Source: Candidatus Kuenenia stuttgartensis
Lineage (GTDB): Bacteria; Planctomycetota; Brocadiia; Brocadiales; Brocadiaceae
Length of the DNA stretch: 32,000 bases
NCBI RefSeq assembly: GCF_900232105.1
Contig: NZ_LT934425.1
Location: 2,520,001 to 2,552,000, forward strand
Reading direction: 5' to 3'
Of this stretch, positions 20,757-31,998 are shown one piece after another; within the stretch, counting starts at the first letter, position 1; each line of letters begins with the position of its first letter. The position numbers and the translations under genes were made by a program. The notes below the pieces were generated by a model. The model had not been told where the DNA came from. It saw only the letters and a program-made list of their open reading frames with translations, and did no database searches.

Positions 20757-20784
20757 TTGACTTGAAAAGCAGATTAAGTATAAT
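20757..20784 (+). promoter_or_regulatory. near-consensus sigma70-type promoter for hdh
   Basis: TTGACT (20757-20762), a 16-nt spacer, then TATAAT (20779-20784). This implies a 5' leader of about 190 nt before ATG 20984. Confidence 0.55.
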
Positions 20785-20983
20785 AATCTGTCCGAAAAAA
20801 ACGATGGTAAGGAAGTTCAGTCTACAGTTAATTTTAGAGATAGCGTTTAACAGTTTAGGTTTAGTGTTTCGGAAAGGGGGTGGTTTGAGGGGTTCCAAGG
20901 TGGTGAAGTATGTTTATTGTTCCGCAATCAAACGTGATTGTGGTATGAGAGAAATGCGAGAAAGGAGGAAGATAAAAAGTATC

Positions 20984-22732
20984 ATGCGTAAATTTTTGAA
21001 AGTTACATTGGCATCAGCGTTGATTGGTTGTGGCGTTATAGGTACTGTTTCAAGCCTTATGGTGAAAGAAGCTAAGGCTGTAGAAATTATCACTCACTGG
21101 GTACCACACGAAGTTTATGGTATGCCTGGGGAGCCTGATAATAGTGGTAAGGTATTTTTCTCTGGTTTGAAAGCAAAATATATGGGTTACCCAAAAGATG
21201 CACAGAGGTCGCCATACCCGGGAAAATACAGCAAGTTTTGGAAGACATTGCCTGCGTACCGTTATTACATCCCGGATTATATGTACAACAGGGATGAGGT
21301 AAGGCCTTCAAACCCGATTAAGGGCACATTTAAGCTGGAGCAGTGTGTTGCTTGTCACTCAGTTATGACTCCCGGCATTGTAAGGGATTATAATAAGAGT
21401 GCTCATTCAAAGGCAGAGCCGGCACCAACTGGTTGTGATACCTGCCACGGCAACAACCATCAGAAGTTAACTATGCCTTCATCAAAGGCTTGCGGGACAG
21501 CGGAATGTCACGAAACGCAGTACAATGAGCAAGGGCAGGGAGGAATTGGTTCCCACGCATCTTGTTCCAGTTTCGCTCAGGTTGAGTGTGCATGGTCAAT
21601 TGAAAGGCCACCCGGAGATACAGCGGGTTGTACTTTCTGCCATACCAGCCCTGAAGAAAGGTGCAGCACTTGCCACCAGAGGCATCAGTTTGATCCGGCA
21701 GTTGCAAGACGCTCTGAGCAATGCAAGACCTGTCACTGGGGTAAAGATCACAGGGATTGGGAAGCTTATGATATAGGTCTTCATGGTACAGTATATCAGG
21801 TTAACAAGTGGGATACGGAACAGTTTGACTTCTCAAAGAAGCTTTCTGATGCTGATTACGTTGGTCCTACCTGCCAGTACTGTCACATGAGGGGCGGGCA
21901 TCATAACGTGCAGAGAGCAAGTATCGTATATACCAGTATGGGTATGTCGATGGCTGATCGTGGTGCACCACTCTGGAAGGAAAAGAGAGACCGTTGGGTA
22001 TCTATCTGTGACGACTGTCATTCACCAAGATTCGCCCGCGAGAATTTGCAGGCGATGGACGAGTCTGTTAAAGACGCTAGTTTGAAGTATCGTGAAACAT
22101 TCAAGGTAGCGGAAGATCTTCTTATTGACGGTGTACTAGACCCCATGCCAAAGGATCTTTGTCCTGATTGGTCAGGTCAGCACATCTGGAGTTTGAAGAT
22201 TGGGGCTTACCACGATGGAGAAGCTTACGGTGGAACTACCGGCGAATCCGGAGAGTTTAGAATGTCAAACTGTACTGATGTGGAGAGGCTTTGTTTTGAA
22301 AGTGTTGGTTACTTCCAGACATACATTTACAAGGGCATGGCGCACGGCTCCTGGAATGATGCTACCTACTCAGACGGTTCATTCGGTATGGATCGTTGGT
22401 TGGTCAACGTAAAGCAGAATGCTTCACGTGCAAGAAGGCTTGCTGCTTTGGAAAAGAAGGTTGGTATTTCATGGCAGCCTGAGCAGTTCTGGAAAACAGG
22501 CGAATGGCTGGATCAGTTGACCGGGCCATATATCGTAAAGAATCACCCTGGCAAGACGATCTTCGATCTTTGTCCAGATCCAGGCTGGTTAGACACACAT
22601 CATGCACCTGCTGAAGAGGTTGAGTACATTGAGAGAAAACTCAAGGAACTCGGCATTACCGCTGGTTCACACAGTGCGCATCATCATGAATCTGGCCATG
22701 ATCCAGCTGCAAGATCCATGAAAGAGCATTAA
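20984..22732 (+). CDS. hdh: octaheme hydroxylamine-oxidoreductase-family protein, assigned to hydrazine dehydrogenase (HDH; HZO cluster 1)
   Basis: 582 aa from ATG 20984 with a Sec signal MRKFLKVTLASALIGCGVIGTVSSLMVKEAKA. There are eight heme c sites: CVACH, CDTCH, CGTAECH (CX4CH), CTFCH, CSTCH, CKTCH, CQYCH and CDDCH. The DNA at 21722-21739 and 22175-22192 matches the HZO cluster-1 primers hzocl1F1/hzocl1R2 as I recall them. The start is uncertain (ATG 20945 and 20954 are also in frame); AAGGAGG is at 20962-20968. Confidence 0.85.
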   Translation: MRKFLKVTLASALIGCGVIGTVSSLMVKEAKAVEIITHWVPHEVYGMPGEPDNSGKVFFSGLKAKYMGYPKDAQRSPYPGKYSKFWKTLPAYRYYIPDYMYNRDEVRPSNPIKGTFKLEQCVACHSVMTPGIVRDYNKSAHSKAEPAPTGCDTCHGNNHQKLTMPSSKACGTAECHETQYNEQGQGGIGSHASCSSFAQVECAWSIERPPGDTAGCTFCHTSPEERCSTCHQRHQFDPAVARRSEQCKTCHWGKDHRDWEAYDIGLHGTVYQVNKWDTEQFDFSKKLSDADYVGPTCQYCHMRGGHHNVQRASIVYTSMGMSMADRGAPLWKEKRDRWVSICDDCHSPRFARENLQAMDESVKDASLKYRETFKVAEDLLIDGVLDPMPKDLCPDWSGQHIWSLKIGAYHDGEAYGGTTGESGEFRMSNCTDVERLCFESVGYFQTYIYKGMAHGSWNDATYSDGSFGMDRWLVNVKQNASRARRLAALEKKVGISWQPEQFWKTGEWLDQLTGPYIVKNHPGKTIFDLCPDPGWLDTHHAPAEEVEYIERKLKELGITAGSHSAHHHESGHDPAARSMKEH

Positions 22733-25259: not shown

Positions 25260-25286
25260 CCTTTTTCGAGTCCTTACCGAAAAAGG
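25260..25286 (-). terminator. palindromic hairpin between the glycosyltransferase gene and add (possible terminator)
   Basis: CCTTTTTCG-N9-CGAAAAAGG is a perfect 9-bp stem. On the minus strand the T-rich tract follows only after 6 nt, so the terminator assignment is weak. Confidence 0.3.
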
Positions 25287-25405: not shown

Positions 25406-26665
25406 CTATTCCTTTTTATATTTTTCTATCAAATAAGGTTTTTGTTTTTCAAACTCCATTGCCTGTAATTCTATGATGTCTTCTGCTTCTGTGGAATCCA
25501 TTTCCTTCACTTCACGGCAATATGATGCTGTTCGTCCGAAATAGAGGGGCGTTAACATGTCAACAAGCCGCCTTCTGTTCCTTTGCCAGTGGTTATACGT
25601 AAAGGCAAAGTCGCACAATATCCTTGCCCAAAGGTCTGAAGGGAAATGTATCTCTCCGGTTTTGTTGAAATCTATTGAAATATCATATAAACGGTTAAAA
25701 TTCTCAGCATCAAGTATCTGTTCATAAAAGGGTTCAAATTGTTCAAACCCATCGCTGAATTCTGCCAGTAATTTTGTAAAATTAACCGATACAGGCTCAA
25801 CCTTTGCCGCCTCGCCGGTAATTCCAACGGTTTCTATATCCACAGTCTTTTCCGCTTGTTTCCACTTTGATTCATATTTACTCATCAGATAATATAAAGT
25901 ACTGATAACCTGCTGAAACATGGGGCCAAGGTCCGCCGCCGGGTCTTTTGCATTATGAACCTTTGTTCCCAAATGCGCCTGCACGATTTTAAACCCTTCA
26001 TTAAGGGCAGTAGTAGTCATCCAGACGTCTATTCCGAAACGGGCAACATCTGACTCCCACACATCCTCGTTTACATAATATGCCGCCAGGTCGCCGCAAA
26101 ATCCAAAATCTCCGCCAATGGGCTGCCGGATTTTTGCGCCATATAAAGCACGGGTAAGCGGATAAACAATGTTGTTTGTAATGGTGCCATCATATTTATG
26201 GCGAAGATATAAAGGGGCAACAAAACCTGCCTGTTTGTTTATAATGGGGTCAGCAAGCATCTTAATCCATTCCGGTGTAATGCTCCTCAAATCAGCATCA
26301 ACAACAACGATGGCGTCTGCCTTCAATAATTGGGCAACCTCGAAAATTGCCCGGAATGCCGTTCCCTTTCCAGGAGTACCCCGGTAAATCGTTACGCGGC
26401 GCTCAATGCCGTCAGGAATGGTTGCGGAGTAAGCCTTTTCTCGTGTATCGTCAAGGGAACCACCATCGGAAACAAATACAGCGCATTTTTTATCGGGGTA
26501 ATATTTTTTTAAACCTTCAGCGGATACTGCCACAACATGCGAAATGGTGTCTTCACAATTATAGCAAGGAATGCCGACAATTATATCCACCTCCTGCATT
26601 TTACTTATCCACATGTGTACATTTTGACGAACGGCTGATGAGTACTTCTTTTTTAAATTGATCAT
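25406..26665 (-). CDS. GT-A fold glycosyltransferase (family-2-like), candidate second sugar transferase of the glucosylglycerate-type pathway
   Basis: 419 aa with IVGIPCYNCEDTI, VSDGGSLDDT and VVVDADL (DxD). It lies on the same strand, 115 bp downstream of the GpgS-like gene. The specific function is inferred from context only. Confidence 0.6.
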   Translation of the reverse strand: MINLKKKYSSAVRQNVHMWISKMQEVDIIVGIPCYNCEDTISHVVAVSAEGLKKYYPDKKCAVFVSDGGSLDDTREKAYSATIPDGIERRVTIYRGTPGKGTAFRAIFEVAQLLKADAIVVVDADLRSITPEWIKMLADPIINKQAGFVAPLYLRHKYDGTITNNIVYPLTRALYGAKIRQPIGGDFGFCGDLAAYYVNEDVWESDVARFGIDVWMTTTALNEGFKIVQAHLGTKVHNAKDPAADLGPMFQQVISTLYYLMSKYESKWKQAEKTVDIETVGITGEAAKVEPVSVNFTKLLAEFSDGFEQFEPFYEQILDAENFNRLYDISIDFNKTGEIHFPSDLWARILCDFAFTYNHWQRNRRRLVDMLTPLYFGRTASYCREVKEMDSTEAEDIIELQAMEFEKQKPYLIEKYKKE

Positions 26666-26780
26666 GAAAATCCCCCCCCTTCTTTTTGTTTATCCCCGGT
26701 TAATTATAAAATTACTCTGTATCGATGCACAATCTTTACCCTACTCCATATGTCCGAAAATGTAAGGTATATTTTTCAGA

Positions 26781-27998
26781 TTAACGCGTTTTTGTATTAT
26801 CAGCTTCTACTGCAGCAATTAATTTATTAAAGAAATCGGGGATTGCAGAAATAATCCTGTTCCAATTTGGAATAAAAGGTATCCCCGATGGGTCATTTAG
26901 AAATTGTTCTCCTGCTATGCCAATACTTTTGACGAATGCGTCAACGGCATTCATTTCCTGATGACGGTCAAAAACAAGCCCGTTAATTGCAGAGTCGTGG
27001 TTGTATTTTTCAATGAATTCATGACCTGCCCTTTGGTATGTAGCCCTCAGCGTTCTGAAGCATTCACCTGAAAAAACAACACCCATACTAGCCAGATTTT
27101 TGTAAATGGACTTAGCGATGTCAATGCTCATTTTGGTAAGCCCGGTGGTTGGGTCTTCGTCAGATAACGGTTGATGTTTGTGTTCATACGTTTCACACAA
27201 ATCAACCTGGCAAATCCTTCTCATCGAACAATTTCTGTAAACTTCAGCCAAAACACCCACCTCCAGTCCCCAATCTCCCGGTATTCTGTTAATACGTGCA
27301 AGGTCGGTTGCCATTGAAAATTCTCCTGCAAGCGGATAACGAAAGCTGTCGAGGTATTCGAGGAAATCGTTATTGCCTATTATTTTTTTCAACGACCTGA
27401 TGAAAGGAGTCACAAATAACCTTGTGACACGGCCGTGCATCCGATCGGTAATACGGTGATAGTATCCTTTGCAGAATTCAAAATCCAAATTGGGATTTAC
27501 CACAGGATAGCATAATCGTGCCAAAAGTTCACGGCTATAGTTTGTAATGTCGCAATCATGCAAGGCAATTACTTTTGATTTTTCTGTCGCCAGCACATAT
27601 CCATAAGCGAGCCATGCTGACCGTCCCTTTCCGTCAATGCCCGCAGATATCTTCTCGTCCGTTAAAAGCTTATACAGATTTTGAATATTTTCTCCGTCAT
27701 TCCAGATTAATTTTGTTTCCTGAGGGAGAACCGAAAAAAATCGTTTTGCTTCGGCAAATTCGCTTTCATTAAACCGACCAAGCGTCACAACAACCTGGCT
27801 TATATACTTTACCTCCTTAATCTGTTCAACGATTCCCCGTAAAGCAGTTCCTTTCAGTTCAACGGGCGTCGCCGGCAAAACAAGCGCAACAGGCCGTGAA
27901 TAGGCATATTTTTCAATGCCATGCTCTATCTTTTCTATTGTGGTGGTGTCAAACCTGTGAATTGTGGTAATCTCACCATTTTGAAAAAAATCTCCCAT
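26781..27998 (-). CDS. glucosyl-3-phosphoglycerate synthase-like retaining glycosyltransferase (GpgS/MpgS type)
   Basis: 405 aa. The N-terminus FFQNGEITTIHRF, plus DGKGRSAWLAYGY, ALHDCDI, PLAGEF and DWGLEVGVLAEV resemble GpgS-type enzymes as I remember them. The gene is adjacent to an MPGP-family phosphatase. Confidence 0.65.
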   Translation of the reverse strand: MGDFFQNGEITTIHRFDTTTIEKIEHGIEKYAYSRPVALVLPATPVELKGTALRGIVEQIKEVKYISQVVVTLGRFNESEFAEAKRFFSVLPQETKLIWNDGENIQNLYKLLTDEKISAGIDGKGRSAWLAYGYVLATEKSKVIALHDCDITNYSRELLARLCYPVVNPNLDFEFCKGYYHRITDRMHGRVTRLFVTPFIRSLKKIIGNNDFLEYLDSFRYPLAGEFSMATDLARINRIPGDWGLEVGVLAEVYRNCSMRRICQVDLCETYEHKHQPLSDEDPTTGLTKMSIDIAKSIYKNLASMGVVFSGECFRTLRATYQRAGHEFIEKYNHDSAINGLVFDRHQEMNAVDAFVKSIGIAGEQFLNDPSGIPFIPNWNRIISAIPDFFNKLIAAVEADNTKTR

Positions 27999-28011
27999 GT
28001 TTTTCCTCTTT

Positions 28012-28821
28012 TTATAGGTCTTCGAATATCCTTAATATCTCCCTATTCCAACCTGCCGGGCCAATTCCATCGGCATAAACAAGATTTGGAAGCTGAATCC
28101 TTTTATCATAATCTCCCGTTTTTTTCCGGACAATAACGGGAACATCTACCGCGGCTAACATAGGCAGATCTATATGGCTGTCGCCAATGCCAATTGTGCG
28201 TATTTGATCATGATAATGATCGCAATACATATTGATTAGCATTCTTACTGCTTTCCCTTTGTCGGTATTTAAGCTAAAAATGTGATGAAAACGTCCTCCT
28301 TCCATAAAATTAAAACCCAAAGCATTAAATATTTTTTTGATTTTGTTAATATTTTCATGACCACTTTCTATAAAAATTGGTTCAGAATAAAGACGCTGTT
28401 TCGCTCGTATCGCGGAAGAAATATCGATTCCCGTAATAGCCGAAATTTTCCCGGGCGTTAAATCGGAAAAACCTGTTATGGCAATACCGCAAGATTCCCT
28501 TATCTTGTGTAATGCAGCTACAATTTCCTTATAGGGGGTTCCAAGCCTGACTATGCTATAGTTCCCGTTTTTTTTATCAATGACAGATTTGAAATATCCG
28601 TCCGGTATAATAATAGCACCGCCATTTTCAGGGATAAAAGGGTCTTTATTGTCCAGTTTTTCACGATATACCTCAATCTCGGCCTGTGTTTTACTCGTAC
28701 AGATTACTACAGGAATGTTACGCGCACGAACCAACGCCAGGGCCTCTTTTGCCTTTTCGAAGGAATAGGTGGTATGGTCTAACAACGTTCCGTCCAGATC
28801 AGTTATTATGATATACTTCAT
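28012..28821 (-). CDS. HAD-IIB phosphatase of the mannosyl-/glucosyl-3-phosphoglycerate phosphatase (MPGP/YedP) type
   Basis: 269 aa with motif I IITDLDGTLLD, motif II VICTSKT and motif IV GIGDSHIDLPML. It follows the GpgS-like gene with a 13-bp gap. Confidence 0.75.
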   Translation of the reverse strand: MKYIIITDLDGTLLDHTTYSFEKAKEALALVRARNIPVVICTSKTQAEIEVYREKLDNKDPFIPENGGAIIIPDGYFKSVIDKKNGNYSIVRLGTPYKEIVAALHKIRESCGIAITGFSDLTPGKISAITGIDISSAIRAKQRLYSEPIFIESGHENINKIKKIFNALGFNFMEGGRFHHIFSLNTDKGKAVRMLINMYCDHYHDQIRTIGIGDSHIDLPMLAAVDVPVIVRKKTGDYDKRIQLPNLVYADGIGPAGWNREILRIFEDL

Positions 28822-29696
28822 GGTTGATTTGTCTCCGTCTTTCCAAAAGACTTTTTCATGTAAAAATAGCTGAACCCTGCGACCAGAAGCAAAATAAATA
28901 CAGAAGCTGCAGCTCCCTGTCCGAAATCGCCTTTATAAAAGAAAAGTCTGTAAGAATATACCGATAACGTTTCAGTAGCTCCTCCTGGCCCGCCGCCTGT
29001 CAAAACATAAACAAGATCAAATATCCTTAAGGTGTCAATTGCACGGAACAAAACGGCCACCCCCAATATGGGTAGTATTAATGGAAGCGTTATGTATCTG
29101 AAAGACTGCCAACTGTTTGCCCCATCAATTATGGAAGCCTTGTATATTTCACGCGGTATGGCAGAAAGGCCCGCCCATACAATTATAGCTACAAACGGAG
29201 ACGTCTTCCAGACATCTGCCATCACCAGGGATAAAAAAGCGACAAATGAATTTCCGAGCCAATTAATTCTGCCAATTTCAATAATTCCTAAAAGATAATT
29301 CAAAATGCCAAGGTTGTAATCCAGCATCCATTGCCACATTCTGGCCGTTACTACAGTCGGTATTATCCAGGGTATTAATATAAAAATTCTCAAAAACCCT
29401 TTTTTTTCAGAAATAAGATTGAGCATAAGCCCAAAACATAAACCTACTATTGCCTCAAGAGATATCGAAACAAAGGTGAAAAGAAGGGTAAAAAAAAGAG
29501 CATGCCAAAAGCGTGAATACGATACTAAAACTTTGTAATTATGAAAACCATTAAATGTTTCGTCAGGCAGTATTGTTTTTGAGTTTTTGAAAGAAAGCAC
29601 AAGCGTATCAATGAACGGGAATAGACTAAACAGCGCCACTAATACTAATCCTGGGATTAAGCAGAAATAGGGGAATCTATTCCTTTGCAAAATCAT
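28818..29696 (-). CDS. ABC transporter permease, CUT1 (MalF/UgpA-like) family
   Basis: 292 aa with 6 hydrophobic helices. The EAA-loop region is KASIIDGANSWQSFRYITLPL. There is a 4-bp overlap with the phosphatase gene. Confidence 0.8.
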   Translation of the reverse strand: MILQRNRFPYFCLIPGLVLVALFSLFPFIDTLVLSFKNSKTILPDETFNGFHNYKVLVSYSRFWHALFFTLLFTFVSISLEAIVGLCFGLMLNLISEKKGFLRIFILIPWIIPTVVTARMWQWMLDYNLGILNYLLGIIEIGRINWLGNSFVAFLSLVMADVWKTSPFVAIIVWAGLSAIPREIYKASIIDGANSWQSFRYITLPLILPILGVAVLFRAIDTLRIFDLVYVLTGGGPGGATETLSVYSYRLFFYKGDFGQGAAASVFILLLVAGFSYFYMKKSFGKTETNQP

Positions 29697-30957
29697 CCTT
29701 AATCCTTTCTATTTTATCCTGCATGATCTGCAATGCCTCCTGAATTTCCATTTGACGGGATAATACCTTGCTGAGATATTTCTGCAAGACGTCGCTAATC
29801 CATTGATAATACGGGACATTTGGCCGCATTTGTATATTTTCAAGCGACTGTTCTACTATTGGGAGGAAGGGCAATTTTTCAATCAACTCCGCATCTTTAT
29901 ACAAGGAACTTCTCGTGGGCGCCCACGATACATTTTCTGCCAGTCTTTTCTGAACTTTGGCGGAGGTTAAAAATTCAATTAATTTCCATGCCTGTGCTTT
30001 TTTCCCGGAGTTTGCATTTATTGCCAGATGCCATCCTCCACATACGGAAGCAAACGATCCATCGGGAAACTTTGGTAACAGGGCAACACCTACTTTGTCT
30101 TTCAGTGTTATGTCTTCCTGGCATAAATCCCACACATATGTCCAATTCCGCAAAAAAAGTCCCTTACCCTGTTGGAACAAATGCCTTGAAGATTCCTCCA
30201 TTAGCTCGCTATAAGTATTTTGTGGAGAGATTTTATATTTCCAGATTAAATCATGCATAAGCTGGAGGGCTGTTTTGTTTTGTGCAGAATCTATCACAGT
30301 ATTTCCGGTATCATCAATTATTTGACCATTGTTACTGCCAATAAATTCTATAAAATTGCAAACCAAACCCTCATACTGCTTGCCCTGCCATAAATATCCG
30401 TAAACATCCTCCTTTCCTGAAATCTTTTCACATACTGCCACAAACTGATCCCAGTCAACAGGCAGAGGAAGATGATATTTTTCCAGTAAATCTTTCCTAT
30501 AATAGAGAAGTCCTATATTAATATTCCAGGGAATTGCATAAAGGGTATTATTGTAAACATTCGTTTTTTCCGTTACAGGAATGAACGCACCTCGTTCTTT
30601 GCTGTTAATATAGGCATTCAGAGGCTCAATCCAATGTGCTGATGCGAACTCAGGGATCCAAATGGTATCGATTCGCATAACATCTACATACTTGGTTCCG
30701 GCGTCTAAAGTGGAGAGATAATAGTGGTGTTGTTGATCTGAGGGGGAGGGAAGGGCATTTAATTTTACTTTTATTCCATGATTTTCTTTTTCATACGCAG
30801 CAATTATTTCTCTGATAAAGGAAATTTCTTTTGTACCTGCGCCAACACTAAAAACAATTTCATCAGTTTTTTCCTGTTTTAAAAATGTATAAACAATCCA
30901 AGTCCCTAACAAAAAATATACTGATAATACGGCAATTAGTCTTATATTGAATTTCAA
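29677..30957 (-). CDS. ABC transporter extracellular solute-binding protein (family 1, sugar-type)
   Basis: 426 aa with an N-terminal anchor MKFNIRLIAVLSVYFLLGTWIV. Its size and its position upstream of the CUT1 permease (20-bp overlap) fit this role. The ligand is unknown. Confidence 0.65.
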   Translation of the reverse strand: MKFNIRLIAVLSVYFLLGTWIVYTFLKQEKTDEIVFSVGAGTKEISFIREIIAAYEKENHGIKVKLNALPSPSDQQHHYYLSTLDAGTKYVDVMRIDTIWIPEFASAHWIEPLNAYINSKERGAFIPVTEKTNVYNNTLYAIPWNINIGLLYYRKDLLEKYHLPLPVDWDQFVAVCEKISGKEDVYGYLWQGKQYEGLVCNFIEFIGSNNGQIIDDTGNTVIDSAQNKTALQLMHDLIWKYKISPQNTYSELMEESSRHLFQQGKGLFLRNWTYVWDLCQEDITLKDKVGVALLPKFPDGSFASVCGGWHLAINANSGKKAQAWKLIEFLTSAKVQKRLAENVSWAPTRSSLYKDAELIEKLPFLPIVEQSLENIQMRPNVPYYQWISDVLQKYLSKVLSRQMEIQEALQIMQDKIERIKDDFAKE

Positions 30958-31215
30958 CTGAAATCTCTGTGTTTACCTATAGACATAGTAGTTTTATCTT
31001 TGGTCTTCTCTCTTGGTGATACTTGTCCGTTCCAACATTTTGAAAATTTAAACATTTGTTTATTGGAGAAAAGAGGCGTTTTTATCCTTAAATTACCATT
31101 ACAGCGACATTTTTATTTCAGAATTGCAGCAATTTTTTGGAAAGAAACAACCCTGTCAGAGTTAATATCCTGCCGGTTTTCGTGCAGAACGTAAGAATAA
31201 AATGTCACAGAGGTA

Positions 31216-31998
31216 CTACCTACTATGCCCGGCAGGACTAACAACCTCTCTCGCCTCCCGATTCCATGCTTTATGTTTTTTAACTAATTCATCCAATTCT
31301 TTTACGTTTAAAATATTTTGTTGCAGGAAATATTCGCCGAAAGGACGCTGAAGCCTCCGCTGTCTTCCCAGAAGTGCCAAATACTGAAAATGTGTTATAA
31401 AACCGTTCCGGCATGCGTATTCAGCGAATTTTTCACGATGGTTTCTTGTTGTCAAGATGTTTCGTATATCTTCAGTCGTTAAAATATTCCAATCTCTTGC
31501 AAGCTGCCCGATAAGCGGTCTTTGCTTCCTCTGCCAAAAAATAGCGGATAGCAATGTCCTCCACGAAATAGCGCCTGAATAATACATATATTGACCAATC
31601 AGTAGTTTCCGCTTTGGAATGCTGCCTTTGTAAAAAAATTCTGTAACATTGTTTTGCTTTTTAGAATGTGCCGTATGCCTTACGGTCTTTTGTACATCCT
31701 CCCTTTGTTTTGTTGTTTTGTTTCCGGCGATAAGCACGTTCGCACTTTGGCTCTTTATGAAAAGATTTAGTCTTTCATACGCCAGAACTATCTCTTTAAA
31801 ATGCTGTATCATATCGGATTCTAACCTTCCCAGCATTTTAGCCCTGTCCGGGTGGGTTTCCAGCACCTTCTTCCTGTAAACCATCCTGAGTTCGGAAGGC
31901 AACATGTTTTGCAAGAAACTGGTGATATTTACAATGTCAGGGCCAAATAACAAACGGCAATCATTGAGAAGTTTTGTTCCGGATATAATATCTGGCAT
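31216..31998 (-). CDS. J-domain protein with non-canonical C-terminal repeat region
   Basis: The J domain LRMVYRKKVLETHPDR..FKEIVLAYERL contains HPD. There is no G/F or zinc-finger region. The ATG at 31996-31998 touches the window edge, so the ORF could extend further. Confidence 0.7.
   Translation of the reverse strand: MPDIISGTKLLNDCRLLFGPDIVNITSFLQNMLPSELRMVYRKKVLETHPDRAKMLGRLESDMIQHFKEIVLAYERLNLFIKSQSANVLIAGNKTTKQREDVQKTVRHTAHSKKQNNVTEFFYKGSIPKRKLLIGQYMYYSGAISWRTLLSAIFWQRKQRPLIGQLARDWNILTTEDIRNILTTRNHREKFAEYACRNGFITHFQYLALLGRQRRLQRPFGEYFLQQNILNVKELDELVKKHKAWNREAREVVSPAGHSR

Follow-up and report, generated by a model that had tools for sequence, protein, structure and literature searches.

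A putative two-route glucosylglycerate gene cluster beside part of a split sugar importer in Candidatus Kuenenia stuttgartensis

Results

Organization of the five-gene block

A stretch of 32,000 nucleotides from the anammox planctomycete Candidatus Kuenenia stuttgartensis (contig NZ_LT934425.1, positions 2,520,001 to 2,552,000; the window) carries five minus-strand genes, in which part of an ATP-binding cassette (ABC) sugar importer lies next to enzymes that probably make the compatible solute glucosylglycerate (GG). In the direction of transcription, the block begins with a malE-type solute-binding protein (SBP; 29677..30957; 426 aa, TTG start; KSMBR1_2376 / kustc0702) and a CUT1 permease of MalF/UgpA/GlcT type (28818..29696; 292 aa; PF00528). 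These are followed by an MPGP-family HAD-IIB phosphatase, read as GpgP/MpgP (28012..28821; 269 aa; TIGR01486), a long-type glucosyl-3-phosphoglycerate synthase (26781..27998; 405 aa; gpgS_1 / KSMBR1_2373; NF040724) and a GT-A glycosyltransferase which we read as Ggs-like and call GT419 (25406..26665; 419 aa; KSMBR1_2372; PF00535 and a structural model). The listing of open reading frames (ORFs) agrees for all five with the coordinates given in the first-pass annotation. Gene order in the window equals KSMBR1_2369-2377 of Kuenenia stuttgartiensis MBR1, whose public annotation names gpgS_1, mpgP, malF and malE, and calls the 419-aa gene a "hypothetical protein".

The genes are tightly packed. 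The SBP and permease genes overlap by 20 nt, and the permease and phosphatase genes by 4 nt; the phosphatase gene is separated from gpgS by 13 nt and gpgS from GT419 by 115 nt. No terminator-like hairpin was found by the consensus scan in this 115-nt gap, and a strong ribosome-binding site (GGGGGG) precedes the ATG of GT419. Downstream, on the same strand, the scan gave a pattern match to a terminator-like hairpin (25260..25286; 10-bp stem followed by a T-run), which is probably the end of the transcription unit. Upstream of malE is a minus-strand intergenic region of 258 nt (30958..31215) with a weak promoter-like match, CTGACA-16-AAAAAT at 31159-31132. Such matches number 21 in the region against 22.3 expected from shuffles, so they were not used to place internal promoters. 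The same block exists in Kuenenia sp., K. hertensis, Loosdrechtia and another Brocadiaceae metagenome-assembled genome (MAG); because it recurs in these relatives, the arrangement is not a matter of chance.

A probable two-step route through GpgS and a phosphatase

The synthase and phosphatase had been read from the sequence as a two-step pathway, and profile searches supported both family assignments, consistent with a GpgS/GpgP-type route. The phosphatase scores 238.6 bits against TIGR01486 (MPGP family; cut-off 164.75) and 224.6 bits against TIGR02461, slightly short of the cut-off of 244.35. It also aligns with the solved mannosyl-3-phosphoglycerate phosphatase MpgP in PDB (3ztw; 3.5e-35), and its HAD motifs DLDGT and GDSHID are intact.

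Judged by its profile match, the 405-aa protein is homologous over its full length to GpgS of the Methanococcoides type: it matches NF040724 (GpgS_Meth) over positions 3-400 of 402 (3.6e-111, 371.9 bits), although below the equivalog cut-off. Its GT-A DXD motif is HDCD within VIALHDCDITNY, and homologues at 62-69% identity bear the Joint Genome Institute (JGI) product name glucosyl-3-phosphoglycerate synthase. A GT55 MpgS was ruled out for this protein, which has no Pfam match and matches GpgS_Meth at full length. The synthase and the phosphatase thereby both withstand the profile checks set for them in the first-pass annotation.

The genome also holds a second GpgS-like paralogue (G000:C1:3178494-3179753, plus strand; L098:8432-9757), with 44% identity to the GpgS of the window. 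It is solitary among unrelated genes (CysRS, a GAF-HD protein, MobB and cytochrome P460), and its orthologues occur in other Kuenenia and in some Scalinduaceae genomes.

GT419 as a candidate single-step synthase

The third enzyme matches PF00535 (GT2, GT-A; 2e-10), with its DXD motif in VDADL. Its AlphaFold2 model (pLDDT 89.9) consists of a GT-A domain and a C-terminal helical domain. In Foldseek, the top eight matches of the model are all mannosylglycerate synthase (MGS), aligned over about 410 columns with TMq of 0.67-0.70 and TMt of 0.74-0.77, whereas GT81 GpgS is matched in the GT-A domain only (TMq about 0.44). MGS acts in a single step on free D-glycerate.

The GT419 family is large and strongly conserved, with at least 8000 matches and about 60% identity across phyla. 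Several homologues (60-63% identity) carry the JGI product name glucosylglycerate synthase, and the Pfam family MGS_GT is matched by some members, but not by the Kuenenia protein. Neighbouring genes were counted at 80 GT419 loci from many phyla in a species genome collection. A gpgS and a phosphatase gene are adjacent in about 14 of the 80 loci, and a glycerate 2-kinase-family gene (DUF4147 and MOFRL) is found in 9; glycogen synthase (13 of 80) and GH77 (10 of 80) are also present, and branching and debranching enzymes, MscS channels, CorA and MgtE occur in smaller numbers. The Kuenenia genome itself has two GlgC genes (for ADP-glucose), one MOFRL gene and TreY. Taken together, the modelled fold, the synteny and the JGI names make it more likely that the 419-aa protein is a Ggs-like single-step glucosylglycerate synthase, which would provide a second route to the same solute.

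The enzyme had earlier been proposed to extend the product to mannosylglucosylglycerate (MGG), which does not agree with these results. MggA belongs to GT4 and would have a GT-B fold, while the 419-aa protein matches PF00535 and is modelled with a GT-A, MGS-like fold; MggA was therefore rejected as its identity. No GT4 gene exists within the five-gene block. These observations together point to a second single-step route and not to an extender.

In Scalinduaceae (L005-L010), there are at least two GT419 paralogues. The one about 64% identical to that of Kuenenia lies apart from gpgS and adjoins glycogen synthase in L006 and L010, while a second (49-51% identity) is located about 3.5 kb from gpgS; further copies show about 40% and about 35% identity. 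Across Brocadiales, GT419 falls into four subgroups, at about 64, 49, 40 and 35% identity.

A complete importer split between two loci

The SBP matches PF01547 (SBP_bac_1; 1e-39), and its nearest solved relative is the trehalose/maltose-binding protein (TMBP) of Thermococcus litoralis (1eu8; 1.2e-89, 304 bits), followed by Thermotoga maritima MalE3 (6dtq; 2e-85), then SmoF, the Thermus thermophilus substrate-binding protein 6j9w, which binds alpha-glycosides, and LpqY. Its N-terminus is a signal-anchor helix in the membrane, and a lipobox is absent. The 292-aa permease (PF00528, 4e-13) resembles GlcT (6e-30), UgpA (3e-28) and MalF (1e-24).

Seven BPD_transp_1 permease matches were found in a genome-wide census, of which only that of the window is of MalF/UgpA/GlcT type. 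The sole MalG-type permease (C1:2022177-2023073) is followed by a MalK/UgpC-type ATPase; this malG-malK locus (G000:C1:2021101-2023073; L097:9102-11074) is 527 kb from the window. The set of SBP, MalF, MalG and MalK types is thus complete genome-wide but not within the operon, and the reading of a truncated or incomplete importer was dropped once malG-malK turned up elsewhere. The importer is complete but split between two loci, and is the only CUT1 sugar importer of the genome. Next to malG-malK, a 1232-aa MscS-type mechanosensitive channel is encoded on one side; the other side has a GroEL paralogue and Lon.

By similarity, the SBP belongs to the TMBP branch, closest to trehalose and maltose binders. 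Its orthologous importer in Brocadia (62-69% identity) is a contiguous MalG-MalK-SBP-MalF set with a Thermococcales-type TreT upstream and TreZ-TreY downstream. Location amid trehalose-synthesis genes points to trehalose as the substrate of the Brocadia importer. For Kuenenia, where no TreT was found in the genome, we consider it somewhat better than an even chance that trehalose-type alpha-glucosides are the main substrate, while glucosylglycerate as a physiological substrate is a clearly less probable, but serious, candidate. Trehalose is the most likely ligand, at least as likely as glucosylglycerate. A search of the genome for an MGH1-like hydrolase gave only a weak match, in an 891-aa ORF, and no catabolic enzyme was assigned.

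In one Brocadia genome (L091:3096-15782), the order is TreT, a small ORF, a CitMHS transporter, MalG, MalK, MalE, MalF, TreZ and TreY, a block that joins two trehalose synthesis routes with the importer. The MalE orthologues of Jettenia, Loosdrechtia and a related MAG form an in-frame fusion with a PMR1/SERCA-like P-type cation ATPase, to whose C-terminus they are joined (L100:5244-9275 in Loosdrechtia; two copies in L092; L002:218-4180), giving proteins of 1315-1343 aa, in which the SBP anchor helix would serve as an additional transmembrane segment. This fusion, which is absent from Kuenenia, is one protein in NCBI ("HAD-IC family P-type ATPase") and forms only six 90%-identity clusters, with the four named ones all from Jettenia.

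Expression of the synthesis and import genes

Average reads per kilobase per million (RPKM) under ammonium-limited and nitrite-limited growth, given here in this order, were taken from the supplement of PMC7438415 (Smeulders et al. 2020). They are 6.6 and 7.7 for malE, 12.5 and 14.3 for malF, 40.9 and 33.9 for mpgP, 90.8 and 113.3 for gpgS_1, 68.0 and 62.7 for KSMBR1_2372 (GT419), 20.9 and 26.0 for malG, and 35.4 and 23.3 for malK. Expression is low and constitutive, and none of the seven genes is differentially expressed between the two regimes (PMC7438415). In the direction of transcription, values are about ten times higher at gpgS than at malE, and malE and malF are 5-15 times below the synthesis genes.

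This downstream rise suggests at least one promoter belonging to the synthesis genes themselves, while read-through from malE may occur too. As an indicative result, internal promoter(s) argue against one fused transcript. The first-pass annotation had described synthesis genes transcriptionally fused to uptake genes; the physical joining on one strand stands, and the single transcript is weakened by the RPKM gradient.

The gene upstream of malE, on the minus strand, encodes a J-domain protein (31216-31998; KSMBR1_2377) and reaches 170-211 RPKM against 6.6-7.7 for the adjacent malE, so malE is not at the level of the J-domain transcript. The window also contains the hydrazine dehydrogenase gene (20762-22732; NF052343, 1252 bits), which together with the gene order bears out its assignment to Kuenenia.

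Distribution in Brocadiales

Co-conservation was surveyed in 78 Brocadiales genomes, which are related genomes and not independent samples. GpgS was detected in 42, GT419 in 45 and the SBP in 29. In Scalinduaceae (28 genomes), GpgS is present in 26, GT419 in 28 and the SBP in none, whereas the 12 Brocadia genomes contain neither GpgS nor GT419 and 11 of them have the SBP, as do both genomes assigned to Jettenia from the named fusion proteins, again with neither synthesis gene. Of 14 Bathyanammoxibiaceae genomes, 7-8 also carry GG genes, as do 2 of 3 from Kuenenia and both of those from Loosdrechtia. In a further case (L094), the block stops at gpgS and the GT419 gene is located on another contig.

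Brocadia and Jettenia therefore have the importer but not the GG genes, and Scalinduaceae have GG genes but no detected importer. Conservation of the operon across Brocadiales, which had been suggested as a check, holds in that the block is present in several genera; it does not hold in that importer and synthesis genes are often apart. The distribution of GG genes tracks salt tolerance among anammox genera, which is a lead and not a test, the genomes being related.

A glycerate kinase-family gene lies between gpgS and GT419 in Bathyanammoxibius. In Bathyanammoxibius amoris (L093:4805-13981), nine co-directional genes form the most complete "make plus import" version in this analysis, in the order HAD phosphatase, GpgS, glycerate 2-kinase-family protein, GT419, a small TPR protein, SBP, MalF, MalG and MalK.

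Discussion

Comparison with known systems

Among the closest known arrangements is that of Persephonella marina, which reportedly has an operon-like gpgS-gpgP-ggs cluster serving both a two-step route, with GpgS (EC 2.4.1.266), and a single-step route, with Ggs (EC 2.4.1.268). In both organisms a third enzyme, of GT-A type, is encoded beside the long-type GpgS and the MPGP-family phosphatase. They differ in gene order, and the cluster of Kuenenia, a mesophilic anammox planctomycete, is directly behind malE-malF. The best structural match of the 419-aa model is the MGS of Rhodothermus marinus (GT78; 2bo4, 2y4j; TM 0.68-0.77), from which it differs in sequence, and the Kuenenia sugar is probably glucose rather than mannose.

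The MGG pathway of Rhodopirellula baltica (GpgS, MggA, MggB; PMC3736172) comes from the same phylum and also has a long-type GpgS as its first step. However, MggA is a GT4 enzyme and MggB another kind of HAD enzyme, neither type is in the Kuenenia block, and in R. baltica the genes are spread over the genome. For the importer, the closest solved SBP relative belongs to the trehalose/maltose transporter of T. litoralis, whose gene cluster includes treT; the Brocadia importer, too, has a TreT of Thermococcales type in its cluster. The Kuenenia importer differs from it in being split over two loci, without a TreT found, and in having GG synthesis genes as neighbours. In Synechocystis, the Ggt transporter genes are at separate loci. 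Cyanobacterial GgpS and GgtABCD, where the solute is glucosylglycerol, provide another case of a compatible-solute synthase in a predicted operon with CUT1 importer genes (PMC2874817).

Proposed model

We favour, at roughly 70%, a reading of the block as an osmoprotectant module made up of two units, which can be separated both evolutionarily and by their expression. The first unit, gpgP-gpgS-ggs, would make glucosylglycerate by two routes. GpgS would join glucose from a nucleoside diphosphate (NDP)-glucose to 3-phosphoglycerate, after which the MPGP-family phosphatase would strip the phosphate; the 419-aa enzyme would convert NDP-glucose (probably ADP-glucose) and D-glycerate to glucosylglycerate in one step, as in P. 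marina. The second unit, malE-malF, would supply the binding protein and one permease, completed by malG-malK at the distant locus, and the likeliest role of this importer is uptake or recapture of alpha-glucoside osmolytes, with trehalose leading and glucosylglycerate possible.

Several points weigh against this model. The 372 bits of the 405-aa GpgS are below the NCBIfam equivalog cut-off of 700 for NF040724. The grounds for the Ggs assignment are the modelled fold, the synteny and JGI names derived from KEGG orthology; the model of GT419 and MGS share only 16-17% identity, which does not fix the sugar or the acceptor. The RPKM values come from low read counts (baseMean 2-28) and are indicative only. 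The anammox osmolytes cited in a paper on haloalkaline-tolerant anammox are only glutamate and trehalose, not glucosylglycerate (PMC13597103). In addition, GG genes adjoin divergent TMBP-like importers (35-40% identity, MalG and MalK included) in both Bathyanammoxibius and a Binatia MAG, so glucosylglycerate is still a plausible ligand, favoured by these cases more than our estimate allows.

Alternative explanations

The last point bears on the view that the importer is dedicated to glucosylglycerate, for recapture of leaked solute or scavenging from neighbours, much as GgtABCD serves glucosylglycerol in cyanobacteria, with synthesis still by GpgS/GpgP and Ggs. In both Bathyanammoxibius and Binatia, a TMBP-like SBP-MalF-MalG-MalK set lies beside GT419 or gpgS, a recurrence that is apparently independent; SmoF, a relative of the SBP, binds an alpha-glycoside with a small aglycone; and ggpS of Synechococcus WH8102 is in a predicted operon with ggtCDA (PMC2874817). 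Nevertheless, the nearest solved proteins bind trehalose and maltose, the Brocadia orthologue has TreT on one side and TreZ-TreY on the other, in genomes that carry neither gpgS nor ggs, and malE and malF are expressed far below the synthesis genes, which leaves this view the strongest of the alternatives but still unlikely. The earlier claim that the linked importer recaptures the very solute made beside it is weakened likewise, by the trehalose context in Brocadia and by the separability of importer and GG genes. Far less credible is a single operon that makes the solute, extends it to MGG or another di-hexosyl glycerate by the third enzyme, and re-imports it by the linked ABC system. Tight packing on one strand, TMBP-like importers beside GG genes in three lineages (Kuenenia/Loosdrechtia, Bathyanammoxibius and Binatia) and production of MGG by the planctomycete Rhodopirellula (PMC3736172) would fit it; the full-length MGS fold of GT419 against the GT4 class of MggA (PMC3736172), the lack of a GT4 gene in the block, a family named glucosylglycerate synthase by JGI and tied to glycerate kinase-family genes, an RPKM gradient unlike a single transcript, and the presence of the importer alone in Brocadia/Jettenia and of GG genes alone in Scalinduaceae do not.

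It is also improbable, to nearly the same degree, that the glycosyl-glycerate, instead of acting as an osmolyte, primes the synthesis of a polysaccharide or glycolipid or is an intermediate towards one, or is a solute of nitrogen stress. Glucosylglycerate has such roles elsewhere, for example in mycobacterial methylglucose lipopolysaccharide (PMC3736172; PMC5381378), and the constitutive, low expression was recorded in non-saline chemostats. On the other hand, expression does not differ between ammonium- and nitrite-limited growth, the block contains no methyltransferase, acyltransferase or polymerising glycosyltransferase, and in other phyla GT419 has genes for glycogen metabolism, Mg2+ transport and mechanosensitive channels as neighbours. 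GG genes were moreover found in anammox genera that are marine or halotolerant, and none was found in Brocadia or Jettenia.

Novelty and significance

All parts of the system are of known kinds and in part annotated already, and linkage of a synthase with an importer has a cyanobacterial precedent in ggpS-ggtCDA (PMC2874817). In line with the first-pass annotation, which knew of no characterization in anammox bacteria, our literature search found no paper tying anammox to glucosylglycerate synthesis. New are the functional reading of KSMBR1_2372, the split importer with its trehalose-cluster ancestry, and the distribution of GG genes. For annotation, the "hypothetical" KSMBR1_2372 gains a probable function, and the likely ligand of the importer is narrowed to trehalose-like alpha-glucosides.

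A wider and quite speculative proposal, to which we give limited credence, is that glucosylglycerate is an overlooked anammox osmolyte helping to set salinity niches, that a trehalose-type importer was recruited for its recapture in the Kuenenia lineage, and that the ATPase-MalE fusion of sister genera hints at coupled osmoregulation by ions and solutes. Both in the sea and in saline wastewater, it is salinity tolerance that determines the dominant anammox genus, and a dual-route GG pathway in the salt-tolerant and marine lineages would offer a concrete, nitrogen-free candidate solute.

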